Assembly (NCBI RefSeq): GCF_044324875.1
Contig: NZ_CP172185.1
Reading direction: 5' to 3' (one strand)
DNA: 64,000 nt
Source: Escherichia coli
Lineage (GTDB): Bacteria; Pseudomonadota; Gammaproteobacteria; Enterobacterales; Enterobacteriaceae
The notes under the pieces are model-generated. The model saw only the letters and a program-made list of their open reading frames with translations. It ran no database searches and was not told where the DNA came from. The translations under genes and the position numbers were made by a program. Shown here piece after piece: positions 20,675 through 63,503 of the stretch (position 1 is its first letter; each line of letters opens with the position of its first letter).

Positions 20675-20735
20675 TAACACGTTGATTGATAAGGAGTCAA
20701 AAGACTCCTTTGAGACAGGTTACAAATGTAAAATT

Positions 20736-20835
<100 letters not shown>

Positions 20836-20934
20836 TGAAACGATGAGCAATCTGTAGAGTTTGATTCAGACCTTCTATTTTTCCCGCTTATCCGTGCCCC
20901 ATCTCCCATTTTCCCTCACCCGTACCGTCACCGC

Positions 20935-22400: not shown

Positions 22401-22463
22401 CGGATGCGTTTCGCTTATCTGACCTGGCATCGCGTGTAGGCCGGATAAGCGAAGCGCATCCGG
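22401..22463. repeat. REP element(s) between ugpB and ugpA
   Basis: GTAGGCCGGATAAGCGAAGCGCATCCGGC plus degenerate partner. Confidence 0.8.
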
Positions 22464-22485
22464 CACAGTTCAGGAATTAACCGTA

Positions 22486-39115: not shown

Positions 39116-41302
39116 ATGTCCGATCGTATCGATAGAGACGTGATTAACGCGCTAATTGCAGGCCATTTTGCGGATCCTTTTTCCGTACTGGGGATGCATA
39201 AAACCACCGCGGGACTGGAAGTCCGTGCCCTTTTACCCGACGCTACCGATGTGTGGGTGATTGAACCGAAAACCGGGCGCAAACTCGCAAAACTGGAGTG
39301 TCTCGACTCCCGTGGATTCTTTAGCGGTGTCATTCCGCGACGTAAGAATTTTTTCCGCTATCAGTTGGCTGTTGTCTGGCATGGTCAGCAAAACCTGATA
39401 GATGATCCTTACCGTTTTGGTCCGCTAATCCAGGAAATGGATGCCTGGCTATTATCTGAAGGTACTCACCTGCGCCCGTATGAAACCTTAGGCGCGCATG
39501 CAGATACTATGGATGGCGTCACAGGTACGCGTTTTTCTGTCTGGGCTCCAAACGCCCGTCGGGTCTCGGTGGTTGGGCAATTCAACTACTGGGACGGTCG
39601 CCGTCATCCGATGCGCCTGCGTAAAGAGAGCGGCATCTGGGAACTGTTTATCCCTGGGGCGCATAACGGTCAGCTCTATAAATACGAGATGATTGATGCC
39701 AATGGCAACTTGCGTCTGAAGTCCGACCCTTATGCCTTCGAAGCGCAAATGCGCCCGGAAACCGCGTCTCTTATTTGCGGGCTACCGGAAAAGGTTGTGC
39801 AGACTGAAGAGCGCAAAAAAGCGAATCAGTTTGATGCGCCAATCTCTATTTATGAAGTTCACCTGGGCTCCTGGCGTCGCCACACCGACAACAATTTCTG
39901 GTTAAGCTACCGCGAGCTGGCCGATCAACTGGTGCCTTATGCTAAATGGATGGGCTTTACCCACCTCGAACTGCTGCCCATTAACGAGCATCCGTTCGAT
40001 GGCAGTTGGGGTTATCAGCCAACCGGCCTGTATGCACCGACCCGCCGTTTTGGTACCCGCGACGACTTCCGTTATTTCATTGATGCCGCACACGCAGCTG
40101 GTCTGAACGTGATTCTCGACTGGGTGCCAGGCCACTTCCCGACCGATGACTTTGCGCTTGCCGAATTTGATGGCACGAACTTGTATGAACACAGCGATCC
40201 GCGCGAAGGCTATCATCAGGACTGGAATACGCTGATCTACAACTATGGTCGCCGTGAAGTCAGTAACTTCCTTGTCGGTAACGCGCTTTACTGGATCGAA
40301 CGTTTTGGTATTGATGCGCTGCGCGTCGATGCGGTGGCGTCAATGATTTATCGCGACTACAGCCGTAAAGAGGGGGAGTGGATCCCGAACGAATTTGGCG
40401 GGCGCGAGAATCTTGAAGCGATTGAATTCTTGCGTAATACCAACCGTATTCTTGGTGAGCAGGTTTCCGGTGCGGTGACAATGGCGGAGGAGTCTACCGA
40501 TTTCCCTGGCGTTTCTCGTCCGCAGGACATGGGCGGTCTGGGCTTCTGGTACAAGTGGAACCTAGGCTGGATGCATGACACCCTGGACTACATGAAGCTC
40601 GACCCGGTTTATCGTCAGTATCATCACGATAAACTGACCTTCGGGATGCTCTACAACTACACTGAAAACTTCGTCCTGCCGTTGTCGCATGATGAAGTGG
40701 TCCACGGTAAAAAATCGATTCTCGACCGGATGCCGGGCGACGCATGGCAGAAATTCGCTAACCTGCGCGCCTACTACGGCTGGATGTGGGCATTCCCGGG
40801 CAAGAAACTGCTGTTCATGGGGAACGAATTTGCCCAGGGCCGCGAGTGGAACCATGACGCCAGCCTCGACTGGCATCTGTTGGAAGGCGGCGATAACTGG
40901 CACCACGGTGTCCAGCGTCTGGTGCGCGATCTGAACCTCACCTACCGCCACCATAAAGCGATGCATGAACTGGATTTTGACCCGTACGGTTTTGAATGGC
41001 TGGTAGTGGATGACAAAGAACGCTCGGTGCTGATCTTTGTGCGTCGCGATAAAGAGGGTAACGAAATCATCGTTGCCAGTAACTTTACTCCGGTGCCGCG
41101 TCATGATTATCGCTTCGGCATTAACCAGCCGGGCAAATGGCGTGAAATCCTCAATACCGATTCCATGCACTATCACGGCAGTAATGCCGGCAATGGCGGC
41201 ACGGTACACAGCGATGAGATTGCCAGCCACGGTCGTCAGCATTCATTAAGCCTGACACTACCACCGCTGGCCACTATCTGGCTGGTTCGGGAGGCAGAAT
41301 GA
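39116..41302 (+). CDS. glgB: 1,4-alpha-glucan branching enzyme GlgB
   Basis: 728 aa GH13 protein, first gene of glg operon. Confidence 0.95.
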
Positions 41303-43272
41303 CACAACTCGCCATTGGCAAACCCGCACCCCTCGGCGCGCATTACGACGGTCAGGGCGTCAACTTCACACTTTTCTCCGCTCATGCCGAGCGGGTAGAA
41401 CTGTGTATCTTTGACGCCAATGGCCAGGAACATCGCTATGACTTGCCAGGGCACAGTGGCGACATTTGGCACGGTTATCTGCCGGATGCGCGTCCGGGTT
41501 TGCGTTATGGTTATCGCGTTCATGGCCCCTGGCAACCCGCCGAGGGGCATCGCTTTAACCCGGCGAAGTTGTTGATTGATCCTTGCGCGCGGCAAATTGA
41601 CGGGGAATTTAAAGATAACCCGCTGCTGCACGCCGGTCATAATGAACCTGACTATCGCGACAACGCCGCCATTGCGCCGAAATGCGTAGTGGTGGTTGAT
41701 CACTATGACTGGGAAGATGATGCCCCGCCGCGCACGCCGTGGGGCAGCACCATCATTTATGAAGCCCATGTCAAAGGATTAACGTACCTGCATCCGGAGA
41801 TCCCGGTCGAGATCCGTGGCACTTATAAAGCCCTGGGGCATCCGGTGATGATCAACTATTTGAAACAGTTGGGCATTACCGCGCTGGAACTGCTGCCGGT
41901 GGCGCAGTTTGCCAGCGAACCACGCCTGCAACGTATGGGTCTAAGTAACTACTGGGGTTATAACCCGGTGGCGATGTTTGCGCTGCATCCGGCGTATGCC
42001 TGCTCCCCAGAAACGGCGCTGGATGAGTTTCGCGATGCAATCAAAGCACTGCATAAAGCGGGTATCGAAGTCATTCTTGATATCGTGCTCAACCATAGTG
42101 CGGAACTGGACCTCGACGGCCCGTTATTCTCTCTGCGTGGGATCGACAACCGTAGCTATTATTGGATAAGAGAAGACGGCGATTATCACAACTGGACCGG
42201 TTGTGGCAACACGCTCAATTTGAGTCATCCGGCGGTAGTGGATTATGCCAGCGCTTGCCTGCGTTATTGGGTAGAAACCTGCCACGTCGATGGTTTCCGC
42301 TTTGATCTGGCGGCAGTCATGGGCCGTACGCCAGAGTTCCGTCAGGATGCGCCGTTGTTTACCGCTATCCAGAACTGCCCGGTGCTCTCGCAGGTGAAGT
42401 TAATTGCTGAACCGTGGGATATTGCTCCTGGTGGTTATCAGGTGGGAAATTTCCCGCCGCTGTTTGCCGAGTGGAACGATCATTTCCGCGATGCTGCCCG
42501 TCGTTTCTGGCTTCATTATGATTTGCCTCTGGGGGCGTTTGCCGGGCGTTTTGCTGCCTCCAGCGATGTTTTTAAACGTAATGGTCGTCTGCCGAGTGCC
42601 GCGATTAATCTCGTCACCGCGCATGACGGTTTTACGCTTCGCGACTGCGTTTGCTTCAACCATAAACATAATGAAGCAAACGGAGAAGAAAATCGCGACG
42701 GGACCAACAACAATTACAGTAACAATCATGGTAAAGAAGGGTTAGGCGGTACTCTTGACCTGGTTGAACGGCGTCGCGACAGCATTCACGCCCTGTTAAC
42801 AACGTTGTTGCTCTCCCAGGGTACGCCGATGTTACTGGCCGGTGACGAACATGGTCACAGCCAGCATGGCAATAACAATGCCTACTGTCAGGATAACCAA
42901 TTAACCTGGTTGGACTGGTCGCAGGCAAGCAGTGGTTTAACCGCATTTACCGCCGCGTTAATCCATCTGCGCAAGCGCATTCCCGCTTTGGTGGAGAATC
43001 GCTGGTGGGAAGAAGGCGACGGCAATGTCCGTTGGCTAAATCGATATGCTCAACCTTTAAGCACGGATGAGTGGCAAAACGGGCCGAAACAGCTGCAAAT
43101 TCTGCTCTCGGATCGCTTTTTGATCGCAATTAACGCCACGCTTGAGGTAACAGAGATTGTTTTACCTGCTGGGGAGTGGCACGCCATTCCCCCATTCGCT
43201 GGAGAGGATAACCCAGTGATTACGGCTGTCTGGCAGGGACCTGCACACGGATTGTGTGTGTTCCAGAGATGA
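41299..43272 (+). CDS. glgX: glycogen debranching enzyme GlgX
   Basis: 657 aa GH13; start overlaps glgB stop. Confidence 0.95.
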
Positions 43273-43289
43273 TAAAAAAGGAGTTAGTC

Positions 43290-44585
43290 ATGGTTAGTTT
43301 AGAGAAGAACGATCACTTAATGTTGGCGCGCCAGCTGCCATTGAAATCTGTTGCCCTGATACTGGCGGGAGGACGTGGTACCCGCCTGAAGGATTTAACC
43401 AATAAGCGAGCAAAACCGGCCGTACACTTCGGCGGTAAGTTCCGCATTATCGACTTTGCGCTGTCTAACTGCATCAACTCCGGGATCCGTCGTATGGGCG
43501 TAATCACCCAGTACCAGTCCCACACTCTGGTGCAGCACATTCAGCGCGGCTGGTCATTCTTCAATGAAGAAATGAACGAGTTTGTCGATCTGCTGCCAGC
43601 ACAGCAGAGAATGAAAGGGGAAAACTGGTATCGCGGCACCGCAGATGCAGTTACCCAAAACCTCGACATTATCCGCCGTTATAAAGCGGAATACGTGGTG
43701 ATCCTGGCGGGCGACCATATCTACAAGCAAGACTACTCGCGTATGCTTATTGACCACGTCGAAAAAGGCGCACGTTGCACCGTTGCTTGTATGCCAGTAC
43801 CGATTGAAGAAGCCTCCGCATTTGGCGTTATGGCGGTTGATGAGAACGATAAAATTATCGAATTCGTTGAAAAACCTGCTAACCCACCGTCAATGCCGAA
43901 CGATCCGAGCAAATCTCTGGCGAGTATGGGTATCTACGTCTTTGACGCCGACTATCTGTATGAACTGCTGGAAGAAGACGATCGCGATGAGAACTCCAGC
44001 CACGACTTTGGCAAAGATTTGATTCCCAAGATCACCGAAGCCGGTCTGGCCTATGCACACCCATTCCCGCTCTCTTGCGTACAATCCGACCCGGATGCCG
44101 AGCCGTACTGGCGCGATGTGGGTACGCTGGAAGCTTACTGGAAAGCGAACCTCGATCTGGCCTCTGTGGTGCCGGAACTGGATATGTACGATCGCAATTG
44201 GCCAATTCGCACCTACAATGAATCATTACCGCCAGCGAAATTCGTGCAGGATCGCTCCGGTAGCCACGGGATGACCCTTAACTCACTGGTATCCGGCGGT
44301 TGTGTGATCTCCGGTTCGGTGGTGGTGCAGTCCGTTCTGTTCTCGCGCGTTCGCGTGAATTCATTCTGCAACATTGATTCCGCCGTATTGTTACCGGAAG
44401 TATGGGTAGGTCGCTCGTGCCGTCTGCGCCGCTGCGTCATCGATCGTGCTTGTGTTATTCCGGAAGGCATGGTGATTGGTGAAAACGCAGAGGAAGATGC
44501 ACGTCGTTTCTATCGTTCAGAAGAAGGCATCGTGCTGGTAACGCGCGAAATGCTACGGAAGTTAGGGCATAAACAGGAGCGATAA
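43290..44585 (+). CDS. glgC: glucose-1-phosphate adenylyltransferase GlgC
   Basis: Start at [17 protein letters not shown]; motif LAGGRGTRL. Confidence 0.95.
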
Positions 44586-46018
44586 TGCAGGTTTTACATG
44601 TATGTTCAGAGATGTTCCCGCTGCTTAAAACCGGCGGTCTGGCTGATGTTATTGGGGCATTACCCGCAGCACAAATCGCAGATGGCGTTGACGCTCGCGT
44701 ACTGTTGCCTGCATTTCCCGATATTCGCCGTGGCGTGACCGATGCGCAGGTAGTATCCCGACGTGATACCTTCGCCGGACATATCACGCTGTTGTTCGGT
44801 CATTACAACGGGGTTGGCATTTACCTGATTGACGCGCCGCATCTCTATGATCGTCCGGGAAGCCCGTATCACGATACCAACTTATTTGCCTATACCGACA
44901 ACGTATTGCGTTTTGCGCTGCTGGGGTGGGTTGGGGCAGAAATGGCCAGCGGGCTTGACCCATTCTGGCGTCCTGATGTGGTGCATGCGCACGACTGGCA
45001 TGCAGGCCTTGCGCCTGCGTATCTGGCGGCGCGCGGGCGTCCGGCGAAGTCGGTGTTTACTGTGCACAACCTGGCCTATCAAGGCATGTTTTATGCACAT
45101 CACATGAATGACATCCAATTGCCATGGTCATTCTTTAATATTCATGGGCTGGAATTCAACGGACAAATCTCTTTTCTGAAGGCCGGTCTGTACTATGCCG
45201 ATCACATTACGGCAGTCAGTCCAACCTACGCTCGCGAGATCACCGAACCGCAGTTTGCCTACGGTATGGAAGGTCTGTTGCAACAGCGTCACCGTGAAGG
45301 GCGTCTTTCCGGCGTACTGAACGGCGTGGACGAGAAAATCTGGAGTCCAGAGACGGACTTACTGTTGGCCTCGCGTTACACCCGCGATACGTTGGAAGAT
45401 AAAGCGGAAAATAAGCGCCAGTTACAAATCGCAATGGGGCTTAAGGTTGACGATAAAGTGCCGCTTTTTGCAGTGGTGAGCCGTCTGACCAGCCAGAAAG
45501 GTCTCGACCTGGTGCTGGAGGCCTTACCGGGTCTTCTGGAGCAGGGCGGGCAACTGGCGCTACTCGGCGCGGGCGATCCTGTGCTGCAGGAAGGTTTCCT
45601 TGCGGCGGCAGCGGAATACCCCGGCCAGGTGGGCGTTCAGATTGGCTATCACGAAGCATTTTCGCATCGCATTATGGGCGGCGCGGACGTCATTCTGGTG
45701 CCCAGCCGTTTTGAACCGTGCGGCTTAACGCAACTTTATGGATTGAAGTACGGTACGCTGCCGTTAGTGCGGCGCACCGGTGGGCTTGCTGATACGGTTT
45801 CTGATTGTTCTCTTGAGAACCTTGCAGATGGCGTCGCCAGTGGGTTTGTCTTTGAAGATAGTAATGCCTGGTCGCTGTTACGGGCTATTCGACGTGCTTT
45901 TGTACTGTGGTCCCGTCCTTCACTGTGGCGGTTTGTGCAACGTCAGGCTATGGCAATGGATTTTAGCTGGCAGGTCGCGGCGAAGTCGTACCGTGAGCTT
46001 TACTATCGCTTGAAATAG
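44585..46018 (+). CDS. glgA: glycogen synthase GlgA
   Basis: 477 aa; N-terminal KTGGLADV motif. Confidence 0.95.
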
Positions 46019-48484
<2,466 letters not shown>

Positions 48485-48966
48485 GTTCGCAAAGTGGTAA
48501 CTGCCGTGTGTTCTCTTAAAGCTATCGTTAATGGGCACACGGCATTTTTATATCAGATAAACGATATGTCATGACAATTTACAGACAGTATCGATATATA
48601 ATTCATATTTATTAATTTTTAATAATGATTCTCATCTGAGTATGTATCATACAATAAGCATTATAAATAACTAATAAATTATTTATTATATTTATATATT
48701 GCCCCACTCTTCAGTTATCCTGTCTAAAATAAATCTCTTTGTTTTCAAATGACTGTATTTTTATATAAAGTCAATCATTGCGAGCATGGATTCTTTTAGT
48801 TATATTACCAAGCAGCTCATATAATATTTTCAAGCCATTCTATCTCTTATTTTTTCTGTGGTTAACTACACCAGCTTTATTCATTTAAATAATTTGACTT
48901 ATTAAAGCTGAATGTAAAAATAATCGCCAATATTGCTTGGATTTTTTAACAAAAGGAAAGGTATAA

Positions 48967-49671
48967 ATGAAATTCAATCTATCTAATTTATCCGCAGTTT
49001 TACTCGCATCAGGTATGCTGATGTCAACTGTAGTAACCGCTGCGCCAGGCGATGCATCACAATTTGGTGGTGCGGATACAGACTGGAGCACCGTTGATTA
49101 TCCAAAACTCACCGATATGGATAACAACACCGATGCGATGGGCGGAAACATCCGCTTTACTGGTCGTGTGGTTAAAGCGACGTGTAAGGTTGCTACAGAA
49201 TCGAAACAGATTGAAGTGGTACTGCCAGTCGTACCTTCTAACGCTTTCACGGGCATTGATACCGAAGCAACGGGTGCCAGTAACCAGACTGACTTCAACA
49301 TTAAACTGACTGATTGTAGCAATACGGACAGTCAAAATATTGAATTTCGTTTTACTGGCGTAGCAGACGGTGCCAACCAGACGCTTGCCAATGAAGTGGA
49401 AGGAGCTGCTGATGCTGATGGTACTGGCGAAGCGGGAGCTACGGGTGTAGGGATTCGTATTTATTCTAAAAACACGACAACTGATGGCCTGATTAAGCTG
49501 AACACACAAACTCCCCAGGGGAGTAGTTCTTCCGCAGCCTACGTGATTCCTGGCGATGCTGCCACTCATGATTTTACTGCGGCATTTACCGCGGGCTATG
49601 CTCAGAACGGTAGTACCGTTGCACCAGGTCTGGTGAAATCGACGGCAAGTTTCGTCGTGCTGTACGAATAA
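48967..49671 (+). CDS. fimbrial major-subunit-like protein (chaperone-usher pilin), unusually long
   Basis: Signal peptide, Cys pair, C-terminal donor-strand-like FVVLYE; first gene of cluster with RBS AAGGAAAGG. Confidence 0.7.
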   Translation: MKFNLSNLSAVLLASGMLMSTVVTAAPGDASQFGGADTDWSTVDYPKLTDMDNNTDAMGGNIRFTGRVVKATCKVATESKQIEVVLPVVPSNAFTGIDTEATGASNQTDFNIKLTDCSNTDSQNIEFRFTGVADGANQTLANEVEGAADADGTGEAGATGVGIRIYSKNTTTDGLIKLNTQTPQGSSSSAAYVIPGDAATHDFTAAFTAGYAQNGSTVAPGLVKSTASFVVLYE

Positions 49672-49791
49672 TTACAGCAAGATAATTTCAGGTTACAGTT
49701 ACTTGTAACCTGAAATTAATATTACATGTTTATTGTAATAAATAGACACGTATCAGTAATTAAAAATTAGTTTCATCTACAAGGATGCAGT

Positions 49792-50544
49792 ATGAGATGG
49801 ATTTCAAAAAATAAATGTTTTTCGAATAGAAACATTAATTCTTTGCTGAAGACCCAATATGTCATAAGGGCCGGTGCTCTATTTTTACTATCCGCCATAT
49901 CTATCAATGCTATTGCTGCGGGTGGCTTCGGTCTTGGTTCTACGCGTCTGGTTTATCCATCTGACAGTCAGCAAATTACGCTAAGTGTACAGAATGGTGG
50001 GGCTAACACCAGCTATTTAATCCAGTCATGGATTGATGACAATCAAAGCAGTAAAAAAAGTCAGGATTTTGTGGTTACGCCTCCTTTATTTATGTTACCA
50101 ACGCGAAAAGAAGCCTCATTGAGGATAATGTTTATTGGTAAATCACAGTTACCGACTGATCGCGAAACATTATTCTGGATGAATGTGAAAGCGATTCCGC
50201 CAACGGATGAGAAGAATACCCAGAAAAACACGTTACAACTGGCGTTACAAAACAGAATTAAATTATTTTACCGTCCGACTAATTTACCCGTTCAAGCTGG
50301 TAAAGCACGGGATATGCTGCGATTTAAATACGAAGGTAAACAGCTGAGAGTCATTAACCCTTCTCCCTATTATCTGACGGTGACTGGAATCAGGGTGCAA
50401 GGGGCAAAATTACCTAATGCGTTTGTTCCACCGAAAAGTGACGTAACAGTGTCTTCACCAGTGACGTTAGCCGGTGAAATTACTTATCAAACTATCAATG
50501 ATTACGGTGCCACAACGGCCAGGCAAAAGGGAACGTTGCAATAA
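49792..50544 (+). CDS. periplasmic fimbrial chaperone (PapD-like)
   Basis: Motifs TRLVYP, FVVTPPLF, LFWMNVKAIPP, NRIKLFYRP. Confidence 0.85.
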   Translation: MRWISKNKCFSNRNINSLLKTQYVIRAGALFLLSAISINAIAAGGFGLGSTRLVYPSDSQQITLSVQNGGANTSYLIQSWIDDNQSSKKSQDFVVTPPLFMLPTRKEASLRIMFIGKSQLPTDRETLFWMNVKAIPPTDEKNTQKNTLQLALQNRIKLFYRPTNLPVQAGKARDMLRFKYEGKQLRVINPSPYYLTVTGIRVQGAKLPNAFVPPKSDVTVSSPVTLAGEITYQTINDYGATTARQKGTLQ

Positions 50545-50585
50545 ACCTGGAAGATTAGAACGTTAAAGCAACTCAGGTCAGGGAT

Positions 50586-53177
50586 ATGAACCTAAAGCTC
50601 AAAAAACTCGAACACTGGATAGCAAGGCACAAGCAGATGGGACGGAGTATACCGCTCCTGCTCACACTTTTGCCTGCGTGTTCAGTGGCGGGTATGCGCT
50701 TTAACCCTGCATTCCTGTCGGGTGATACAGAAGCTGTTGCTGATTTATCTCGTTTTGAGAAAGGGATGACATATCTACCTGGTAGTTATGAGGTTGAAAT
50801 ATGGGTCAATGATTCGCCTTTGACATCACGTAAGGTTACTTTCAAAGCTGATGAGCAGAATCAGTTGATCCCCTGTTTTTCGCTCGATGAGTTAGTTACT
50901 TTAGGAATTAACAAAAGTGCATTGCCGGAACAGGCGCAAGCAGAGGGAAATAATTGTCTCGATTTACGTATATGGTTCGCAGAAGTTCAATACACTCCTG
51001 AACTGGATGCGCAACGACTCAAACTGACCTTTCCGCAGGCAATATTAAAGCATGAAGCCCGTGGTTATATTCCACCTGAGGAATGGGATAATGGTATCCC
51101 GGCCATTCTTATTAATTATGATTTTTCTGGCAACAGTGATCGTGGAGACTATGCGTCTGATAGTTATTATTTAAATCTCCGTTCAGGTTTAAATTTAGGG
51201 GCGTGGCGTTTTCGCGATTATTCTACATGGAGTCGTTCAGGTAATTCACCGGGTAAAATTGCACATGTGAGTAGTACGTTACAACGAGTAATTATTCCTT
51301 TTAAAAGTGAATTAACACTAGGTGATACCTGGTCTTCATCGGATGTTTTCGACAGTGTGAGTATTCGTGGTGCTAAACTTGAATCCGATGAAAACATGCT
51401 ACCCGATAGCCAAAGTGGTTTTGCCCCCACTGTGCGCGGTATTGCTAAAAGCAATGCTCAGGTAACGATCAAACAAAATGGCTATGTTATTTATCAGACA
51501 TATACTCCACCGGGACCCTTTGAAATCAACGATCTGAACCCTACGTCTTCCGCTGGGGATTTGGAAGTTACGATCAAAGAGTCTGATAATTCCGAAACTA
51601 TCTATACCATTCCTTACGCCGCTGTTCCCATTCTTCAACGCGAAGGGCATATTAAATATTCGGCAACTGCCGGTAAATATCGTAGCAATAGCTATAATCA
51701 AAACAGTCCGAATGTCTTTCAAGGAGATTTGATTTGGGGGTTACCCTGGGATATTACCGCCTACGGAGGGATGCAATACTCAAATAATTATCGGGCAATA
51801 GCACTCGGGCTTGGGTTCAACCTTGGTATGTTTGGTGCGACGTCATTTGATTTAACGCAAGCCAATAGCACGCTTGCCGATGGCAGTAAACATCAAGGGC
51901 AATTGTACCGTTTCCTATATTCAAAATCGTTAGTGCAGACAGGTACGGCTTTTCAGATTATTGGTTATCGCTATTCGACGGAGGGATTTTATTCGTTGAG
52001 TGATACCACATACAAACAAATGTCGGGTACGGTTATCGATCCAGATACCCTTAATGAAAAAGACTATGTTTATAACTGGAATGATTTTTATAATTTACGT
52101 TATAACAAAAGAGGAAAGTTTCAGGCAAATATATCGCAACCATTGGGCGAATATGGCTCTATGTATTTGGCGGCAAGTCAACAAACTTACTGGAATACGA
52201 ATAATAAAGATACCTTGTATCAGGTCGGCTATAATACGAGTGTACATGGGATTTATTTAAATATTGCTTATAATTATAGTAAGTCACCAGGTTCAGATGC
52301 GGACAGAATCTTATCCGTAAATGTCTCATTGCCGATCAGCAATTGGTTATCACTAGCTGTCGATGGGCGTACTGCGACAAATTCTATGACAGCAACTTAT
52401 GGTTATAGTCAGGATAATAGCGGTCATGTAAATCAGTATGCCGGAGTATCTGGATCGCTGCTGGAACAACATAATCTCAACTATAATATTCAACAAAATT
52501 TTGCCAACCAGAATAATGGCGAAAATGGCTCGGTAGGGATAAATTACCGTGGTACATATGGTTCACTAAATTCTGGATACAGCTACGATAATAATGGTAA
52601 CCAGCAATTTAACTATGGTTTAAGTGGTGCCCTGGTTATTCACGAAAATGGTCTCACGTTAAGCCAGCCGTTAGGAGAAACAAATATACTGATAAAAGCA
52701 CCTGGGGCAAACAATGTAAATGTGGAACGCGGAACGGGGGTTAAAACAGACTGGCGTGGCTATGCTGTCGTACCTTATGCCACGGAATATCGGCGTAATA
52801 ATATCTCTTTAGACCCTATGTCTATGAGTATGCATACAGAATTAGATGCTACTACTATGGAAGTGATACCCAGCAAAGGTGCTTTAGTTCGTGCTGAGTT
52901 TAATGCACATGTCGGTATTCGAGGTTTATTTAATGTTCACTATCGTAATAAACCAGTTCCATTTGGTGCGACGGTCAGTGTACCCACTGAGGGGACAACT
53001 CAGATTACAGGAATAGTGGGTGACAGTGGGCAGGTTTATCTCTCCGGTTTGCCTTTACAAGGCATAATAAATATACAGTGGGGAGAAAGTGCTTATCAGC
53101 AATGTCGGGCAAGTTATCAATTACCGAAAAGCGAACTGGATAATGCCATTAGCTATGCAAATCTGGAGTGCCGCTAA
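50586..53177 (+). CDS. outer-membrane fimbrial usher
   Basis: 863 aa, usher-typical size and beta-rich N/Y/S/G content; located after the chaperone gene. Confidence 0.85.
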   Translation: MNLKLKKLEHWIARHKQMGRSIPLLLTLLPACSVAGMRFNPAFLSGDTEAVADLSRFEKGMTYLPGSYEVEIWVNDSPLTSRKVTFKADEQNQLIPCFSLDELVTLGINKSALPEQAQAEGNNCLDLRIWFAEVQYTPELDAQRLKLTFPQAILKHEARGYIPPEEWDNGIPAILINYDFSGNSDRGDYASDSYYLNLRSGLNLGAWRFRDYSTWSRSGNSPGKIAHVSSTLQRVIIPFKSELTLGDTWSSSDVFDSVSIRGAKLESDENMLPDSQSGFAPTVRGIAKSNAQVTIKQNGYVIYQTYTPPGPFEINDLNPTSSAGDLEVTIKESDNSETIYTIPYAAVPILQREGHIKYSATAGKYRSNSYNQNSPNVFQGDLIWGLPWDITAYGGMQYSNNYRAIALGLGFNLGMFGATSFDLTQANSTLADGSKHQGQLYRFLYSKSLVQTGTAFQIIGYRYSTEGFYSLSDTTYKQMSGTVIDPDTLNEKDYVYNWNDFYNLRYNKRGKFQANISQPLGEYGSMYLAASQQTYWNTNNKDTLYQVGYNTSVHGIYLNIAYNYSKSPGSDADRILSVNVSLPISNWLSLAVDGRTATNSMTATYGYSQDNSGHVNQYAGVSGSLLEQHNLNYNIQQNFANQNNGENGSVGINYRGTYGSLNSGYSYDNNGNQQFNYGLSGALVIHENGLTLSQPLGETNILIKAPGANNVNVERGTGVKTDWRGYAVVPYATEYRRNNISLDPMSMSMHTELDATTMEVIPSKGALVRAEFNAHVGIRGLFNVHYRNKPVPFGATVSVPTEGTTQITGIVGDSGQVYLSGLPLQGIINIQWGESAYQQCRASYQLPKSELDNAISYANLECR

Positions 53178-53740
53178 TGAATATATTACAAAAATTTATT
53201 CTATTAATGTTTAGATCATTGTTCATGATGGTGATTTCATATAACGCACTGGCTAACGATACTGTAGTGGTCACATTTACAGGACAATTATTAGCAAAAA
53301 CGTGTGATATTACAACTGGAAGTAAAGACCAGCCAGTAAACATGGGAACTTATGACGTCAATGATTTTTTGAATGTAGGGGATGTTTCTGGCAGCCATAC
53401 ATTTACGATCAATCTGGAAGGATGTCCTACAACAACCAGTACTGTTTATAGTTCAGGAGTAAGTGCTAATGTGCAGTTTACCGGGGATGCTGATGCTATA
53501 AATACCACTTTATTACGCCTTACTTCCAGCGCGGATAGTGCAACTGGAGTGGGCATCGAAATTTTAGACAGTAATGATAAAATTATAGCAATTAATAGTG
53601 AGTCAGGATTCAAAGAGTTAATTTTAAATAATAATGGCGATGCCAGTTTAACCTTTAAACTCCGCTATAAGTCAACTCAGCAAAACGTACATGCGGGACA
53701 GGCGAACGCACTATTGTACTTTGATATAGACTATCAGTGA
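53168..53740 (+). CDS. fimbrial minor subunit
   Basis: ~185 aa, Cys pair (CDIT...CPTT), C-terminal YFDIDYQ. Confidence 0.75.
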   Translation: MPLMNILQKFILLMFRSLFMMVISYNALANDTVVVTFTGQLLAKTCDITTGSKDQPVNMGTYDVNDFLNVGDVSGSHTFTINLEGCPTTTSTVYSSGVSANVQFTGDADAINTTLLRLTSSADSATGVGIEILDSNDKIIAINSESGFKELILNNNGDASLTFKLRYKSTQQNVHAGQANALLYFDIDYQ

Positions 53741-53747
53741 GGTTAAT

Positions 53748-54272
53748 ATGACACGATATTGGAATTTAATTGCCCTATTATTCTCTGTGATATCTATGTC
53801 ATCCATTGCTGATGATACAACACATACAGGTGTTGTACGTATAGAAGGAATCATAACGGCAAAGACTTGTATTGTTGCCGATGAATCTAAAAATTTCACA
53901 GTTAACATGCCTGATGTTCCCAGCTATATGGTGAGAAATTCAGGGAGTGTTACTGAAAAAATTGGTTTCTCTGTAAAGTTAACCCGTTGTGGCAGTGATG
54001 TCAGTCATGCCAATGTCACGTTTGATGGAATACCAGTTAGTGAAGACGCAGCCCTATATAAACTGGAAGAGGGCTCAGTCGATGGGTTAGCACTGGCTAT
54101 TTTTGATAACAACAGACAAAGTATTAGTAATGGTATAAAGAGTACAAGTTATGCCCTTACACCATTGGTAGATAATACATTGCATTTCTCTGCTGCTTAT
54201 AAAGCTATAAAAAATGATGTACAACCAGGAGATGCGAATGCATCAGTTTCCTTTATCGTCACTTATGATTAA
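53748..54272 (+). CDS. fimbrial minor subunit
   Basis: 174 aa, signal peptide, Cys pair, C-terminal SFIVTYD. Confidence 0.75.
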   Translation: MTRYWNLIALLFSVISMSSIADDTTHTGVVRIEGIITAKTCIVADESKNFTVNMPDVPSYMVRNSGSVTEKIGFSVKLTRCGSDVSHANVTFDGIPVSEDAALYKLEEGSVDGLALAIFDNNRQSISNGIKSTSYALTPLVDNTLHFSAAYKAIKNDVQPGDANASVSFIVTYD

Positions 54273-55014
54273 CGTGCTGATATGCATTTTAATATGTTGC
54301 ACAAATGCGCAGGCAGGAGTTGTTGTTGGCGGTACTCGTTTTGTTTACCCAGAAAAGCAGTCATCAATTTCGGTCGAGCTTAAAAATACTGCCAGTAAAG
54401 ATATGCTGGTTAAAATTTCCGTGACACCTGATGATGGACGTCAGTTAAAAGGGACACTGGAATCCCAGCCTTTACTTCCAGATAAGGCGTTTATTGCCAC
54501 ACCACCATTATTGGTACTTAAACAAGATAAAAATACCAAAATAAGAATCAATCGCGTGGGGGGGCAGTTACCTATAGATCGTGAGAGTTTATTTATACTG
54601 AATATTGCAGCGTTACCTGCTCAGGAACAAAACTCACAGCTTAAGAATGAAAATCAACTCCAGGTGGCTGTACGTAATAGGATGAAAATATTTTACCGCC
54701 CAGAGACGTTATCAGGTAATCCACTTGACGCTTATCAACAGTTACGCTGGTCGCGAAAGAATGAAGCTGTCACCGTTTTTAACCCTACGCCCTGGTATGT
54801 GACACTCTATAATTTATCTATTGATGGTAAAAGCATAAATGGTGGCATGGTTGCACCGTTTAGTCATCGCCAACAGGATTGGTGTCAGCGGCAAGGATAT
54901 TGTGAGATTAACTGGCAAACACTAGATCTTTACAATAATGCCTTACCCGTATGGAGCGTAAAATTAAATGTTTTACAAAATAATGTGATGAGTGCAGTAG
55001 CGATACATGGATAA
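54238..55014 (+). CDS. second periplasmic fimbrial chaperone
   Basis: Motifs TRFVYP, FIATPPLL, LFILNIAALPA, NRMKIFYRP; start uncertain (ORF opens at 54214). Confidence 0.8.
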   Translation: MHQFPLSSLMINVLICILICCTNAQAGVVVGGTRFVYPEKQSSISVELKNTASKDMLVKISVTPDDGRQLKGTLESQPLLPDKAFIATPPLLVLKQDKNTKIRINRVGGQLPIDRESLFILNIAALPAQEQNSQLKNENQLQVAVRNRMKIFYRPETLSGNPLDAYQQLRWSRKNEAVTVFNPTPWYVTLYNLSIDGKSINGGMVAPFSHRQQDWCQRQGYCEINWQTLDLYNNALPVWSVKLNVLQNNVMSAVAIHG

Positions 55015-56158
55015 CTGGAGAAGCATGATGCTTACTTATTTTTGGGGAAATATAAAAGCAATTTGTATATTGTTTGTTCTTTTAGTCAGTAGCTGCTATA
55101 ACATAGTATATGCTGAAGATATGGGACGGGATCGCGCCTTTTGTTATCCTGGTGCACCAGGTAATAATACTACTCCTGCGACATTTTCTTATAATTTTGG
55201 TACGGTAATTGTCTCAGATGTTAATAATAATTCGCCTGGGACAGTATTACCCTCGCAGGACTGGAAAATAGGGCATTATAAGGCTTATTGTAATTCTCTG
55301 GATGATTATGAGGTTTATTTTTCTGGTGTTTCTGGGATTGATCCGTCAGGAGCGTCTGGTGATCATCAGGGGAGCGATATATTTATTCCTTTGACTCATG
55401 AAATATCTGTCTCGACACATGTAAAGCTCTATAATAAAAATGGCACAATGACAGATAAGGCAGTACCTTTTGACAACTATAGCACCAATTATCCAGCAGA
55501 CAGAAGTAAACCATCAAGTTGGGCCTCAGGAACAGAAGGTTATATAAAAATCAGACTTGATAAAAAAATAATATCCGATATATCAATAAATAACGTATTG
55601 CTGGTTTCTTTGTATGTCAGCCAGTTTCCAACAGAGCACGGACCAATTCCAGTATTTAATGCTTATATTGGCAACTTAAATATTGAAGTTCCACAAGGTT
55701 GCACAATTAATGAGGGAACTAGTTTTACCGTTAATATGCCGGATGTCTGGGCCAGCGAATTAAGTCGGGCTGGTGCTGGAGTGAAGCCCACGGGCGTTTC
55801 TCCAGTGGCAACCACTATTCCGATAAACTGTACGAACAAAGATATTGATGCCGTAATGACGCTGGTTTTTGATGGCAATATTTCATCAACGAGAGATGTT
55901 AATGGTCGGCAAAGCATTATTCAGGCGGAGGATAACCCCGACGTTGGTATTATGATTATGGATAGCCAACAGGAATCCGTAGACTTGAACGCTCTTGCTG
56001 CGCATGTTGGTGTGCCATTTAAGTTAGTTGAAAACCGGGCTGAGTCAGCTCAGACGGCAGATGTGACTTTTCTGTCTCTCCCTGTAAGTACCACAGGGCG
56101 ACGCCCTGCTGCGGGTCGTTATAATGCCCTGGCTGTTTTGCGGGTGGAATACCAGTGA
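55007..56158 (+). CDS. putative fimbrial tip adhesin (two-domain pilin-like protein)
   Basis: 383 aa, signal peptide, C-terminal pilin-like domain ending VLRVEYQ; last gene of cluster. Confidence 0.65.
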   Translation: MDNWRSMMLTYFWGNIKAICILFVLLVSSCYNIVYAEDMGRDRAFCYPGAPGNNTTPATFSYNFGTVIVSDVNNNSPGTVLPSQDWKIGHYKAYCNSLDDYEVYFSGVSGIDPSGASGDHQGSDIFIPLTHEISVSTHVKLYNKNGTMTDKAVPFDNYSTNYPADRSKPSSWASGTEGYIKIRLDKKIISDISINNVLLVSLYVSQFPTEHGPIPVFNAYIGNLNIEVPQGCTINEGTSFTVNMPDVWASELSRAGAGVKPTGVSPVATTIPINCTNKDIDAVMTLVFDGNISSTRDVNGRQSIIQAEDNPDVGIMIMDSQQESVDLNALAAHVGVPFKLVENRAESAQTADVTFLSLPVSTTGRRPAAGRYNALAVLRVEYQ

Positions 56159-56571
56159 TGTGTGAGTCAGTGCAGAATCGGATTAGCCCGTTTTTAGCCA
56201 TCGGTAGGGTAAAGTTTGATGGAAAATATGGGTTATGTGCCGATGTATCCCACAATGAAATAACCCTCGAGGGAAAGGAATCAGCGCGATGAACAAATTC
56301 ACGGTGTTTTGCTGCTAGGTGTGGTATTTCTCGGCTTTATTATTGTACCGTTCTTGATATGGCCGACGGTGGTTGCGCTGGCTGCTTGTATTATTACGCT
56401 GAGTTTTCTGGGGAGATACTGTTCTCTATCCCGCTCATGATCAGGCGTATTTCACTTCTGGAATTACAACTTTGGTTATCGGTTGTATATGCGCTTTGTC
56501 CATGCCGGATGCGACGTGAACGTCTTATTGGTCTACAAAATCATGCAAATTCAATATATTGCATAAACCAC

Positions 56572-57565
<994 letters not shown>

Positions 57566-57643
57566 TCACGGATTGGCATCGAAGTCCGATCAGCGATTCG
57601 CATCCATTCGATCAACCGGGAACTTAACTTTTTCTACCGCTTT

Positions 57644-58399
57644 TTAACGCGTTTTTTCGCTGCTTTCCACTACCGGGGGATTTTTCCTCAGTGACTCTCC
57701 CTGAAGGACCACTCGGTGTGAGTTATGTACCAGTCTGTCCAGGATGGCATCTGCTGTTGTTGGGTTCTCCATCAGACCATGCCATTTATCTACCGGGAAC
57801 TGGCTTACCACTATCGTGCTGCTTTGTCCGTAACGATCCTCTATGAGCTCCAGAAGGTCATTACACTGGGCGTTACTTAACTGTTCCAGCCCCAGATCGT
57901 CCAGGATTAGAACCTGTATTTTTTGCAACTGTTTCAGATATTTCAGCCAGCTGCCATCAACACGTCCCTGAGCCAGTTGTTCCAGTAATCGCCCGGTTCT
58001 ACAGTACCGGACGCTGTGTTTCTGTCGACATGCCTGTTCGCCCAGCGCATTGGCTATCCAGCTCTTGCCACATCCTGTCGGACCGGTTATCAGCAGGTTT
58101 TTCCTGTGGGTTATGTAGTGGCCGTTCAGCAGTTCTCTCATCTGTTCAGCCCGCAGACCTCTTGAGGCCGGATAGCGCAGCCCTTCCGGTGTTGCCTGGT
58201 ATTTCAGGCCGGCATTTTTTCTCAACCGTGCCACACGGCTGTTTTCCCTGCTCAGAAGCTCGTCATCAACCAGCAGCGTCAGCCTTTCCTCGAACGACAG
58301 TTCGTCGTAGGTCTGAGGCGTTTCCCGCTGCCGTATCAGGCTCCCGGCCATCGCCGGGAGTTTCAGTTGGGTCAGTTTGTTTAACAGGTTATCACTCAT
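57644..58399 (-). CDS. istB: IS21-family helper ATPase IstB
   Basis: Start at MSDNLLNKL; Walker A GPTGCGKS, Walker B VLILDDLG. Confidence 0.85.
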   Translation of the reverse strand: MSDNLLNKLTQLKLPAMAGSLIRQRETPQTYDELSFEERLTLLVDDELLSRENSRVARLRKNAGLKYQATPEGLRYPASRGLRAEQMRELLNGHYITHRKNLLITGPTGCGKSWIANALGEQACRQKHSVRYCRTGRLLEQLAQGRVDGSWLKYLKQLQKIQVLILDDLGLEQLSNAQCNDLLELIEDRYGQSSTIVVSQFPVDKWHGLMENPTTADAILDRLVHNSHRVVLQGESLRKNPPVVESSEKTR

Positions 58400-58415
58400 A
58401 CTGTTGTTCCTTCTG

Positions 58416-59951
58416 TCAGTGGTAGTAGCCCGGACCACGCAGGTTTTCATGCTCTGAAGCATATGCCGGATGTTGTTCGCCCTGGCGGGATAATGGAAGC
58501 TCCAGGTTCTCCCGATGGTGACGCAGCAGATTGTCGATAAAGCGTCTGTCAGGGGCGTTATAGTGCAGGGCAACGTAACAGGCCTTTTCCAGCCGTTCCG
58601 GGCCGTATTTTTTCTGAAGTGCCAGCAGCCCCAGAACTGCACGATAAGCCAGTTCCGGATGGGGTTTTGCCTTCAGCATGGATTCAACCACCCGGCCTGT
58701 GGACGGGCCCGTACGTTTTCCCTGCTCGATCAGGCGTTCCGGTGTCCATGTCCCGTGCTGCCGGTGGCGCTCTGGCATGTGAAGCGGATTGGTTGTGTGT
58801 TTATATTCATGTGTGCTGCGCGGATGTTGCGCCACACACTGCCCCTTGTGCCAGAGCTGTACCACCGACTGCCCCGCCTTCAGTGACAGACGCTGACCGA
58901 CCAGTTCGTGTGGAACGGAGTACCAGTGACGGGCATATTCAACGTGGTAGTCAGGGCCAACCTTCACAGCTTTGTATTCCGTGTATTCATAAGGTGCCAG
59001 AGGCAGCGGAGAGAGTGCTGGCGCATCCAGTATGCGGAAGCGTTCTGCACGGGTTTGATTGCCGTACCCCTTCATTGGCCGGTTATTCATGTCTGTCAGT
59101 AACTCCCTAAGGCGCGCATTCAGCGCCCTGAGCGTGTGGAAGGTTTCATTACGGATGCGGGCAAGAAGCCATCGTTCAACGATGAGGACGCCGTTTTCTG
59201 CTTTTGGTTTATCTTTAGGTTTGCGTGGTCGGGCCGGGATGATAACCGTGCCATAGTGCTCAGCCAGTGCCTGATAACTGTCGTTGATGACAGGCTCATA
59301 TCGATCGGCCTTTTTCACTGCGCTTCTGAGGTTATCGGGGATGAGCAGCTTCGGTACGCCGCCCAGGAAGGTCAGGCAACGGCTGTGGGCATTTAACCAT
59401 GACATCATGTCCTGACCTTCGCACGCTTCAACGTAGGTATAGTTGGACGCCCCCATTACGGCCACGAAGATTGCCACGCGGCGTATCTCACCGGTGTCCG
59501 GATTAATAACAGGAACCGTAGGACCACAGAAGTCGATAAAAAGCTTTTCGCCGGCACGATGCTCCTGGCGCATGGAGAGACGTCGCGTTTTTTTCCACTC
59601 CCGGTAGCAACGGCAGAAGTGCGAGTATCCCATCGCTTTGTTACCCGCCTGTGCCTTGTATTCCATCCACAACAGTTGCCGCGTCACACCTGGTTTTCTC
59701 ATTTCCGTATCGAAGTACAACATGTCAGGCATTACAAGCTCTGATGCAAAGGTGTCTTTGGGCGGAAAAATGAGTTTCTCCAGCGTGTCATGGGATATAT
59801 CAGCAGGTAATGGCCATGACAGAGAAGAGGCTTTGAAGCGGGCAAGAACCTCAAAAACGGTTGAGGCGCTGATGTGTAACGTCAGTCCGATACAACGGTT
59901 AGTCAGCTTCTTGTCGAACTTGAGCTGAAGGATCTTAAAACAGGTTTCCAT
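58416..59951 (-). CDS. istA: IS21-family transposase IstA
   Basis: N-terminal HTH then DDE integrase core; start uncertain (ORF opens at 60062). Confidence 0.8.
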   Translation of the reverse strand: METCFKILQLKFDKKLTNRCIGLTLHISASTVFEVLARFKASSLSWPLPADISHDTLEKLIFPPKDTFASELVMPDMLYFDTEMRKPGVTRQLLWMEYKAQAGNKAMGYSHFCRCYREWKKTRRLSMRQEHRAGEKLFIDFCGPTVPVINPDTGEIRRVAIFVAVMGASNYTYVEACEGQDMMSWLNAHSRCLTFLGGVPKLLIPDNLRSAVKKADRYEPVINDSYQALAEHYGTVIIPARPRKPKDKPKAENGVLIVERWLLARIRNETFHTLRALNARLRELLTDMNNRPMKGYGNQTRAERFRILDAPALSPLPLAPYEYTEYKAVKVGPDYHVEYARHWYSVPHELVGQRLSLKAGQSVVQLWHKGQCVAQHPRSTHEYKHTTNPLHMPERHRQHGTWTPERLIEQGKRTGPSTGRVVESMLKAKPHPELAYRAVLGLLALQKKYGPERLEKACYVALHYNAPDRRFIDNLLRHHRENLELPLSRQGEQHPAYASEHENLRGPGYYH

Positions 59952-60169
59952 AGTGCTCCTGGATTTTCTCTTTCTGGACATTGACGTCTCCACTGGTTTA
60001 AACACGGCAATGGAGACTGTGGTGAAAAGAGTTAATTCCCGGAGTGACTGGCAGGATGCCAATCAATGATCGGAAGCATGCCAAATCGTGATCGATTGTG
60101 ATGCCAAACTGTGATCGGAGATGGATGCCAAATCATGATCGATTCGAATGCCAAACTGCGATCGATTCA

Positions 60170-60522
<353 letters not shown>

Positions 60523-60590
60523 AGGCAGTTTTTTTGTTTATCATCAGTCTCAGGTCAGATTGAAATCTGACCTGACCACCTTACGTTAAA

Positions 60591-62096
60591 TCACGAAGCC
60601 AGCGATAACCTCTGCTGCGTATACTCCACTAGCCACTGACTCACACGAGATTGTTGATCCGCATTCAGCCACATGCCTTGTTTTGTGCGACGCCACAGGG
60701 CATCGTCGGCGCGACGGACCCATTCGTGATCCACCAGGTATTTCAGTTCCGCTTCGTAGAACTCATGACCGAAATCCTCCCCGAGGTCGCTTATCGCTCC
60801 CGCATTGCAGAGCAGCAGCTCGCTGTTGCTGCCGTAAGTGCGCGCGTAGTGACGTGCCAGCGATTCGGTCAGGAATGGGTAACGACGGCGCAGACGAGCT
60901 GCGTAATCGTCGCGGTCGCCTTCAATGGCACCACCCGGCAGCACGCTCTCTTTCGTCCATGCCGGGCCAATGCCCTGATAATACGGCGTCAGTTTTTCCA
61001 GCGCATGTTCCGCCAGTTTGCGGTAGGTGGTCAACTTACCGCCGAATACCGACAGCAGCGGCGCTTTGCCGTTTTCATCATGGATATCAAGGGTGTAATC
61101 ACGAGTGATAGCCTGCGGCGAATCGGACTCATCATCACACAGCGGACGCACGCCGGAGTAGGTCCAGACGATATCGTCCCGGCTTAACTGCTTTTTAAAG
61201 TGCGTGTTATACACTTTCAGCAGGTAATTGATTTCACTCTCTTCAATTTTTACTGCTTTTGGATCACCTTTGTATTCCACATCGGTGGTGCCGATGATGG
61301 AAAACTCGTCCATCCACGGGATCACGAAGACAATACGTTTATCTTCGTTTTGCAGAATGTAGGCCTGCTTTTGTGTATGCACACGCGGCACCACAATATG
61401 GCTGCCTTTGATCAGGCGAATGCCATAAGGTGAGGGTAGATGCATCCCGTCGTCGAAGAACTGCTTCACCCACGGGCCGGTGGCGTTCACGAGGCCGCGC
61501 GCTTGCCAGCTATATTTTTTGCCGGTATCGATATCTTCCGCTTCCACAATCCACAGGCCGTTTTCGCGGCGAGCAGAAGTGGCACGAGTACGGGTAAGCA
61601 CTTCACCGCCTTTACGCACCACCATCTGGGCGTTGGCGAGTACCAGACGGGCGTCGTCTACCCAACAGTCGGAATATTCGAATCCGCGCTTAATTTCCGG
61701 TTTTAACACTGAATTTGCGCCAAAACGCAAACCGGTTGATCCCGGTAGGCTGGTGCGTTTACCCAGATGATCGTACATAAACAGACCAATCCGAATCATC
61801 CACGCCGGGCGCAGATGCGGACGATGCGGCAGGCGAAAACGCATCGGGAAGGCGATATGCGGGGCCATTTTCAGTAGCACTTCACGTTCAGCCAGCGCCT
61901 CGCTGACCAGGCGGAATTCATAGTGCTCAAGGTAGCGCAGGCCACCGTGAATGAGTTTTGAACTGGCGGAAGAGGTCGCGCAAGCGAGATCCTGCGCCTC
62001 CAGCATCAGCACGGATAAACCGCGTCCAGCGGCGTCTGCCGCGATACCAGCACCATTGATGCCGCCACCTATCACAATCAGATCTTTGGTTTCCAT
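60591..62096 (-). CDS. glpD: aerobic glycerol-3-phosphate dehydrogenase GlpD
   Basis: Start at METKDLIVIGGGINGAGIA (FAD motif); ORF opens at 62111. Confidence 0.95.
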   Translation of the reverse strand: METKDLIVIGGGINGAGIAADAAGRGLSVLMLEAQDLACATSSASSKLIHGGLRYLEHYEFRLVSEALAEREVLLKMAPHIAFPMRFRLPHRPHLRPAWMIRIGLFMYDHLGKRTSLPGSTGLRFGANSVLKPEIKRGFEYSDCWVDDARLVLANAQMVVRKGGEVLTRTRATSARRENGLWIVEAEDIDTGKKYSWQARGLVNATGPWVKQFFDDGMHLPSPYGIRLIKGSHIVVPRVHTQKQAYILQNEDKRIVFVIPWMDEFSIIGTTDVEYKGDPKAVKIEESEINYLLKVYNTHFKKQLSRDDIVWTYSGVRPLCDDESDSPQAITRDYTLDIHDENGKAPLLSVFGGKLTTYRKLAEHALEKLTPYYQGIGPAWTKESVLPGGAIEGDRDDYAARLRRRYPFLTESLARHYARTYGSNSELLLCNAGAISDLGEDFGHEFYEAELKYLVDHEWVRRADDALWRRTKQGMWLNADQQSRVSQWLVEYTQQRLSLAS

Positions 62097-62207
62097 GCTG
62101 CCCTCATTCACTTTCGTTAAAGCTCATAAATGTTCGTTATCGAACATATTAGCAAAGAATCGCGCTTTAGGTAACATTGAAAAAACATTTTAGAGTGATA
62201 TGTATAA

Positions 62208-62612
<405 letters not shown>

Positions 62613-62644
62613 CGCTTTATACTGTCCCCTTTTGTGTGGAATAA

Positions 62645-63487
<843 letters not shown>

Positions 63488-63503
63488 TTCCAGGGATTTA
63501 TAA

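Follow-up and report, generated by a model that had tools for sequence, protein, structure and literature searches.

We analyzed a stretch of 64,000 nt from Escherichia coli (contig NZ_CP172185.1 of assembly GCF_044324875.1, termed 'the window' in the following) and focused on a fimbrial gene cluster located between glgP and glpD, whose genes are denoted aufA to aufG in anticipation of the assignment given below. The genes glgC, glgA and glgP lie immediately 5' of the cluster, the stop codon of glgP being at 48484, and glpD is found downstream on the minus strand (60591-62096). According to the list of open reading frames (ORFs) of the window, seven intact and co-oriented genes with tight or overlapping spacing occupy positions 48967-56158 of the plus strand (Table 1). 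We observed no frameshifts or internal stops among these seven ORFs in the window sequence, and all of them agree with the gene models of the Prokaryotic Genome Annotation Pipeline (PGAP) for strain 135, which originates from chicken faeces (NZ_CP080260) and is 99.98% identical to the window over 39300-56575 and 60500-64000. Based on NCBIfam assignments the order of the products is pilin, PapD-like chaperone, usher, pilin, pilin, chaperone and FimH/LpfD-like adhesin. Chance is not an issue here because the set consists of annotated homologous genes.

A sequence-only reading of the same DNA had described a seven-gene cluster with this gene order behind an AT-rich leader of ~480 bp, and the ORFs, the family assignments and the measured leader agree with it. 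Position 48485, at which that reading had let the region begin, is indeed the start of the leader, but not that of the first gene. Likewise, the placement between glgP and glpD was correct as to the site, whereas the cluster does not directly adjoin glpD: a block of insertion sequences (IS) lies between the two. The GC content was determined to be 27.4% for the leader and 41.2% for the cluster, compared to 52.4% for glgC-glgP and 50.7% for the whole window. In E. coli K-12 MG1655 the glgP-glpD spacer comprises 615 bp with the yzgL pseudogene inside and contains no fimbrial genes, and by comparing the junctions we found ~8.0 kb here in place of ~436 bp in K-12. The earlier statement of a short K-12 spacer was therefore right, and so was the classification of the cluster, which is absent from K-12 MG1655, as accessory DNA.

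Table 1. Features of the cluster and of its immediate surroundings in the window (aa, amino acids; UTR, untranslated region; RBS, ribosome binding site; REP, repetitive extragenic palindromic; E, E-value of the model match)
Feature	Position	Strand	Remarks
AT-rich leader upstream of aufA	48485-48966	+	482 bp, 27.4% GC
Candidate glgP terminator, hairpin and T-run	48502-48544	+	folds at -20.6 kcal/mol, z = -2.8
Conserved 5'UTR/RBS block	about 48925-48966	+	cross-lineage conservation
aufA, major pilin, 234 aa	48967-49671	+	FimA/LpfA-type (NCBIfam); Pfam Fimbrial PF00419
RNA hairpin in aufA-aufB spacer	49683-49718	+	perfect 16-bp stem
aufB, first periplasmic chaperone, FimC-like, short F1-G1 loop	49792-50544	+	FimC/BcfB-type, E 7e-68 (NCBIfam)
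aufC, outer-membrane usher, 863 aa	50586-53177	+	NF011740, 1073 bits; FimD model, E 7e-287
aufD, minor pilin	53177-53740 (alternative starts 53168, 53207)	+	FimF best NCBIfam match, E 5.5e-30
aufE, minor pilin, 174 aa	53748-54272	+	FimF/FimI-type pilin models, E 1e-22 to 1e-25
aufF, second periplasmic chaperone, 258 aa	54238-55014 (alternative start 54214)	+	NF011739, NF008483
aufG, predicted two-domain tip adhesin, 376 aa	55028-56158 (alternative start 55007)	+	FimH/LpfD-like (NCBIfam)
Pseudogene remnant 3' of aufG	56297-56511	+	PGAP: frameshifted and incomplete in strains 135 and 042
IS block, not part of the operon	56576-60499	-	3,924 bp; REP element as target

Predicted products of the seven genes

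Protein families were called by means of NCBIfam and Pfam models. The usher AufC exceeds the NF011740 cut-off of 995 bits, its closest named usher models in NCBIfam being FimD, LpfC and NF011740, and its residues 31-863 align to residues 41-878 of FimD, which corresponds to the full length (E-value 4e-255). The NCBIfam usher models likewise match AufC from end to end, so that the N-terminal domain, the barrel with its plug and the C-terminal domains are all covered. We take the group of FimD-like ushers to be the gamma-1 group in the scheme of Nuccio and Baumler. In the major pilin AufA the PF00419 domain covers residues 62-233 (E-value 1.9e-21), and the protein shows a Cys73/Cys117 pair and the C-terminal sequence ...VLYE. 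Mature AufA carries about 28 extra acidic residues at its N-terminus (residues 26-53, APGDASQFGGADTDWSTVDYPKLTDMDN); this extension precedes the donor-strand segment, and the alignment pairs residue 54 of AufA with residue 5 of mature FimI/FimA. A conserved Cys pair together with a Tyr-containing C-terminal strand was observed in AufA, AufD, AufE and AufG, with the endings ..LYE, ..DYQ, ..TYD and ..EYQ among these pilins and the adhesin. Translation of aufD probably begins with the ATG at 53177; this codon shares 1 nt with the aufC stop, and the resulting product has 187 aa like its CFT073 counterpart. In the PGAP annotations of strains 135 and 042 the gene starts at 53207 instead.

Both chaperones were compared to FimC structures, with E-values of 2e-62 for AufB and 8e-29 for AufF. 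The Arg (..GSTRLVYP.. in AufB and ..GGTRFVYP.. in AufF) and the Lys (..NRIKLFYRP.. and ..NRMKIFYRP.., respectively) are kept in the two proteins; in PapD and FimC, the cleft residues Arg8 and Lys112 anchor the C-terminus of the subunit. The best NCBIfam models for AufF are NF011739 (E-value 2e-51) and NF008483 (E-value 1e-50), ahead of FimC, and models for second chaperones of the NF011708 type also rank among its top matches. AufF further contains a C-terminal Cys216/Cys222 pair, and its gene begins 35 nt before the end of aufE.

In AufG, the Pfam Fimbrial domain is confined to residues 217-376 (the pilin domain), and a receptor-binding domain is predicted at about residues 30-215. Among solved structures, LpfD (5AFO, E-value 6e-18) is closest in sequence. 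An AlphaFold model calculated from 63 sequences reached a predicted local distance difference test (pLDDT) score of 89.3 and a predicted template modelling (pTM) score of 0.75, and a fold search with this model returned LpfD as best match (E-value 6e-22), followed by the tip adhesins CupB6, FimH and CsuE. The receptor domain of AufG is only about 22% identical to LpfD. AufG forms a narrow family: among 1.84 billion representatives we found a single cluster of full-length sequences at 50% identity, the next relatives being about 30% identical. At the 90% level this cluster resolves into at least four full-length alleles, each with many members. Taken as a whole, the products resemble those of Fim and Lpf with regard to the FimD-like usher, the FimC-like chaperone, the FimA/FimF/FimI-like pilins and the LpfD-like two-domain tip adhesin. 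The cluster differs from these systems by its second chaperone and by a leader in which no recombinase or invertible switch was found.

Assignment to auf, alleles and distribution

In the uropathogenic strain CFT073 a seven-gene fimbrial cluster with the same gene order is located between glgP and glpD (C_RS19945 to C_RS19915). Its genes C_RS19945, C_RS19940, C_RS19935, C_RS19930, C_RS19925 and C_RS19920 are aufA-aufF (c4214-c4208) of the operon named aufABCDEFG (PMC5956150, Table 1), and the roles of the individual Auf genes are given in PMC12928451. Every protein of the window has its best match in its CFT073 Auf counterpart, with identities of 84% for AufA, 77% for AufB, 81% for AufC, 77-81% for AufD, 68-70% for AufE, 65-67% for AufF and 83-84% for AufG. 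For the fimbrial proteins of K-12 Elf/Ycb, the next-best family, we observed only 25-49% (49% for AufC and ElfC, 32% for AufE and YcbV and 25% for ElfG; the values for the chaperones are given below). From these one-to-one matches above the next-best family it follows that the cluster is an auf operon, although not the CFT073 allele. Besides site, gene number and gene order, the two loci have in common the conserved 5'UTR block, an unusual AufA of 234 aa with an extended N-terminus and the hairpin that follows aufA. On the other hand the DNA identity is only about 75%, the distal ~280 bp of the leader could not be aligned by megablast, and the aufG-glpD interval of CFT073 and other B2 loci holds three additional hypothetical genes, compared to a remnant of 215 bp here. 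The Auf fimbria was reportedly first described by Buckles et al. in 2004 in Infect Immun (aufABCDEFG, c4214-c4207).

A much closer relative is the auf locus of the prototype enteroaggregative E. coli (EAEC) strain 042 (EC042_RS19665-19635), which is 98.9% identical to the window at the DNA level over 8.1 kb and has the same flanks and the same pseudogene remnant. The proteins are 100% (AufG, and AufD in its 177-aa version), 99% (AufA), 98.6% (AufC), 98.5% (AufF) and 97% (AufE) identical. The 042 locus differs from ours by a frameshift in aufB, which is intact in the window, and by the lack of the IS621/IS21 block before glpD. Taken together, we regard it as highly probable (roughly 90%) that the region represents an intact aufABCDEFG operon for the Auf chaperone-usher fimbria, in a divergent allele typified by EAEC 042 and at the glgP-glpD site. 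The sequence-only reading had noted a resemblance to aufABCDEFG-type clusters, and this turned out to be the auf locus itself; the comparison with characterised fimbrial clusters that it had proposed gave CFT073 Auf as best match for the seven products and K-12 Elf/Ycb as next. Beyond that reading go the divergent allele of the 042 type and the IS elements separating the cluster from glpD.

Both locus and allele are already known from annotated reference genomes and from the literature. Strain 042 belongs to phylogroup D (PMC3559732, Table 1), aufA was reported both for this strain and for EAEC of phylogroup D lineage 2 (PMC7500659), and the chromosomal chaperone-usher operons of 042 have been catalogued with a remark on their sequence divergence from other strains (PMC2808357). 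However, the RefSeq labels of the cluster genes are generic ('fimbrial protein', 'chaperone', 'usher'). A fitting label would be aufABCDEFG (042/phylogroup-D-type allele) instead of 'fimbrial protein', so that the significance of our assignment lies mainly in annotation.

We also considered membership in the Elf/Ycb family of K-12 (elfADCG-ycbUVF) or in the Bcf family of Salmonella instead of Auf. Like the cluster in the window, the Elf/Ycb operon consists of seven genes with two chaperones (ElfD and YcbF), and AufC scores above the cut-off of NF011740, a model which, to judge from the consecutive numbering of the Bcf models, may have been built on a Bcf-type usher. However, the identities to Elf/Ycb are far below those to CFT073 Auf, and the Elf genes are located at ssuE-pyrD with the adhesin-like elfG directly after the usher and the second chaperone at the end, whereas the present cluster is located at glgP-glpD and ends with the adhesin. 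In addition, ElfA of K-12 has only 179 aa and lacks the N-terminal extension of AufA. On the basis of site, gene order and identity we rejected this membership, which we consider practically out of the question, and regard Auf and Elf/Ycb as sister families. According to PMC3559732, Auf and Ycb are close relatives that exclude each other. In the 042 genome ssuE is directly followed by pyrD and no elf/ycb operon is present in this region (L009 2426-4248), which fits the reported exclusivity and broadens it to include a strain of phylogroup D; the same paper itself associates phylogroup D with Ycb.

In order to determine the distribution of the cluster we used it alone as a query against 5,426 complete E. 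coli genomes. We found auf in 786 of them, while it is absent from about 85%. The window type (at least 95% DNA identity) occurs in 228 carriers and the B2 type (about 75% DNA identity) in 558, including Nissle, NC101 and ATCC 25922. All 787 auf copies are chromosomal, none was found on a plasmid, and the site was the same at every locus inspected. The presence of two alleles with about 25% DNA divergence at one site points either to an old residence combined with loss in individual lineages, or to allelic replacement through homologous recombination in the glgP and glpD flanks. As at least two deeply diverged auf alleles occupy one site, typing by PCR or BLAST on the basis of the CFT073 aufA may undercount the carriers.

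Variation was also observed within the B2 type. The loci of CFT073 and AH21G053 (L005 and L010 10443-12358) are 99-100% identical in AufA-D, 94% in AufF and 80% in AufG, and the difference in AufG is mostly found in the receptor-binding domain. Near-identity of AufA-D together with only 80% identity of AufG indicates recombination at the adhesin end, resulting in an allelic mosaic. Compared to the receptor domain of the 042-type AufG, the CFT073 domain shows 85% identity and the domain of another B2 allele 78%, and judging by this divergence the 042-type AufG might bind a different receptor than the B2 alleles. A more distant auf-like cluster was detected in the Logan run ERR11042405 on a 9.3-kb contig (L011 880-9184). 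Its proteins are 53-78% identical to those of the window, it contains two tandem aufG-like genes which are 81% identical to each other, and glgP is not located upstream of it.

Chaperones, regulation and assembly

The occurrence of two chaperones in one operon had been called uncommon in the sequence-only reading. This holds for chaperone-usher operons generally, but not within the subfamily, where CFT073 AufB/AufF and K-12 ElfD/YcbF show that a pair is standard. AufB and AufF share 32-33% identity. AufB resembles ElfD (44%) more than YcbF (29%), and the reverse holds for AufF (38% to YcbF, 31% to ElfD). To judge from these values, AufB/ElfD and AufF/YcbF are orthologous pairs, and AufB and AufF are ancient paralogues of each other. 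The pairing implies that the duplication is older than the split between Auf and Elf and that both copies have been retained since, and this retention argues for non-redundant roles of the two chaperones. Most likely each chaperone takes care of its own share of the subunits, with AufG as a possible client of AufF. A more specific scheme, in which AufF is dedicated to a subset of the subunits, most plausibly the neighbouring AufG, AufB handles the rod and adaptor pilins and the division is ancestral to the Auf/Elf(Ycb)/Bcf group, can be put forward only tentatively, and we rate its chances at somewhat less than even. Between the auf alleles AufF is the most diverged protein while AufG is among the least diverged, and there is therefore no simple co-variation of AufF and AufG at the allele level. 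Our search of the literature on second chaperones (987P FasB/FasC, ycbF, bcfG) returned no usable experimental work. The 987P fimbriae are a precedent for subunit-specific chaperones. It appears plausible that the paired paralogous chaperones across Auf and Elf/Ycb make a case for subunit-specific chaperoning in FimD-like systems.

Next, we examined the non-coding parts of the operon. The hairpin with its T-run near the start of the leader is likely the terminator of glgP. The last ~45 nt 5' of the aufA ATG are near-invariant in the window, in CFT073 and in the distant auf-like locus, and promoter-like hexamers were found in the leader at 48778-48806 and 48894-48921. The AT-rich leader is probably a promoter and silencing region. 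An invertible promoter of the fimS type was considered and rejected: the leader holds only low-complexity AT-rich inverted repeats, and a recombinase gene is missing. The spacer between aufA and aufB folds at -35.6 kcal/mol (z = -6.07), and none of 200 shuffled sequences folded as well. The stem of this hairpin is kept in the B2 allele of CFT073 and LI60C3, while its loop and flanks vary. By analogy with other fimbrial operons, the hairpin probably attenuates read-through or stabilises the aufA mRNA and in this way sets an excess of the major subunit. After aufG we observed no convincing intrinsic terminator, as the region 56155-56300 folds at z = -1.2. The sole regulator of auf reported in CFT073 is TosR, a protein of the PapB family, whose overexpression increased the auf transcripts by log2 2.6-6.6 (PMC5956150).

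The gene content supports the standard chaperone-usher scheme for this allele. Following the homology to Fim and Lpf, each of the seven products would carry an N-terminal signal peptide and be exported by Sec. The PapD-like chaperones AufB and AufF would then cap the incomplete immunoglobulin fold of the pilins by donor-strand complementation, and the FimD-like usher AufC would recruit the chaperone-subunit complexes and polymerise them by donor-strand exchange. The LpfD-like AufG would enter first and thus form the tip, followed by the adaptor pilins AufD and AufE and finally by the AufA rod, and the hairpin after aufA would raise the ratio of AufA to the accessory subunits. Surface filaments containing AufA are what the genes predict for this allele.

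Several points weigh against expression of this allele and its assembly into filaments. The promoter-like matches in the leader are not enriched (29 compared to 25.5 +/- 6.7 expected from shuffled sequences). Damaged copies are found elsewhere: aufB is frameshifted in 042 (L007 35963-36714), an internal stop interrupts aufG at codon 337 in the RefSeq record of CFT073 (L005 2460-3590) and aufE is frameshifted in AH21G053 (L010 9963-10477). This recurrent damage of auf genes in other strains suggests weak purifying selection. Furthermore, deletion of auf reportedly caused no fitness defect in a co-challenge in a mouse model of urinary tract infection (UTI; cited in PMC5956150). With regard to the internal stop in aufG, the published Auf phenotypes of CFT073 may stem from an operon with a truncated adhesin.

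The inactivations in 042, CFT073 and AH21G053 would also fit an operon which is intact but cryptic, i.e. silenced via its AT-rich leader (for example by H-NS), drifting towards a pseudogene and without a phenotype under most conditions. The low GC content of leader (27%) and cluster (41%) favours this explanation, as such values are typical of xenogeneically silenced DNA. In the same direction point the missing UTI phenotype and the poor expression in vitro unless TosR is overproduced (both PMC5956150). However, none of the seven genes is disrupted here or in strain 135. Although their DNA has diverged by about 25%, both alleles have kept the seven frames and their order; this implies purifying selection over the long term. 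Moreover, auf transcripts were found in vivo in CFT073 (PMC5956150, PMC12928451), where auf is expressed during mouse UTI and upregulated by TosR (PMC5956150). We therefore consider a cryptic operon unlikely, though it deserves to be taken seriously, and retain the reading of an intact Auf operon.

Insertion sequences and surroundings

The block between the cluster and glpD consists of an IS621 copy (IS110 family) which is split by an element of the IS21 family (ISSso4-like) at 57538-60192. The split of the IS621 transposase gene falls after about codon 41. These family names are based on other genomes, in which the sequences are annotated as transposase of the IS621 family (IS110-like) and as istA/istB of the IS21-like ISSso4 family. 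The 5' non-coding end of IS621 (about 60310-60499) is the part in which IS621 is reported to encode its bridge RNA. The REP element hit by IS621 is uninterrupted in K-12, and the whole block is missing at the glgP-glpD site of strains 135 and 042. As the block is absent from these near-identical loci and the REP element is intact in K-12, we conclude that the insertion took place later than the arrival of the cluster. The same nested arrangement at glgP-glpD was found in none of the complete genomes of our collection.

These observations bear on the question whether the cluster is a recent mobile genomic island brought in by the adjacent IS elements. A GC content below that of the flanks, the absence from K-12 and from most complete genomes and the presence of IS621 and the IS21-family element immediately downstream of the cluster would agree with such an origin. 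However, neither in the ORFs of the window nor in the comparison with the K-12 junction did we find an integrase, a tRNA gene or flanking direct repeats between glgP and glpD, and the IS block is a later insertion. In addition, all 787 copies of auf are chromosomal with one site at all inspected loci, and two alleles about 25% apart occupy this same site. For these reasons the mobile island was rejected and appears very improbable to us, and we adhere to an auf operon residing at its usual site, next to which IS elements were inserted later.

Downstream of the cluster, strain 135 contains a short pseudogene remnant and, next to it, glpD. The corresponding 215 bp of the window (56297-56511) are 75% identical to a part of the third of the three extra genes in LI60C3 (L002 14532-14706) and, to judge from this alignment, are a leftover of the three hypothetical genes present between aufG and glpD in B2-type loci (L002 13019-15107 and L005 198-2286). 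Of these three genes the window, strain 135 and 042 have kept only this frameshifted remnant.

Repeats of the REP or bacterial interspersed mosaic element (BIME) type, akin to the one upstream of glpD, were observed at 14886-15008, 20711-20839, 22436-22465, 56490-56575 and 60500-60527. Compared to strain 135, the window lacks a copy of IS1397 between ugpB and livF (about 20819-20822) and shows a short differing stretch near zntA/tusA (4622-4738). The rest of the window is collinear with strain 135 at 97-99.9% identity.

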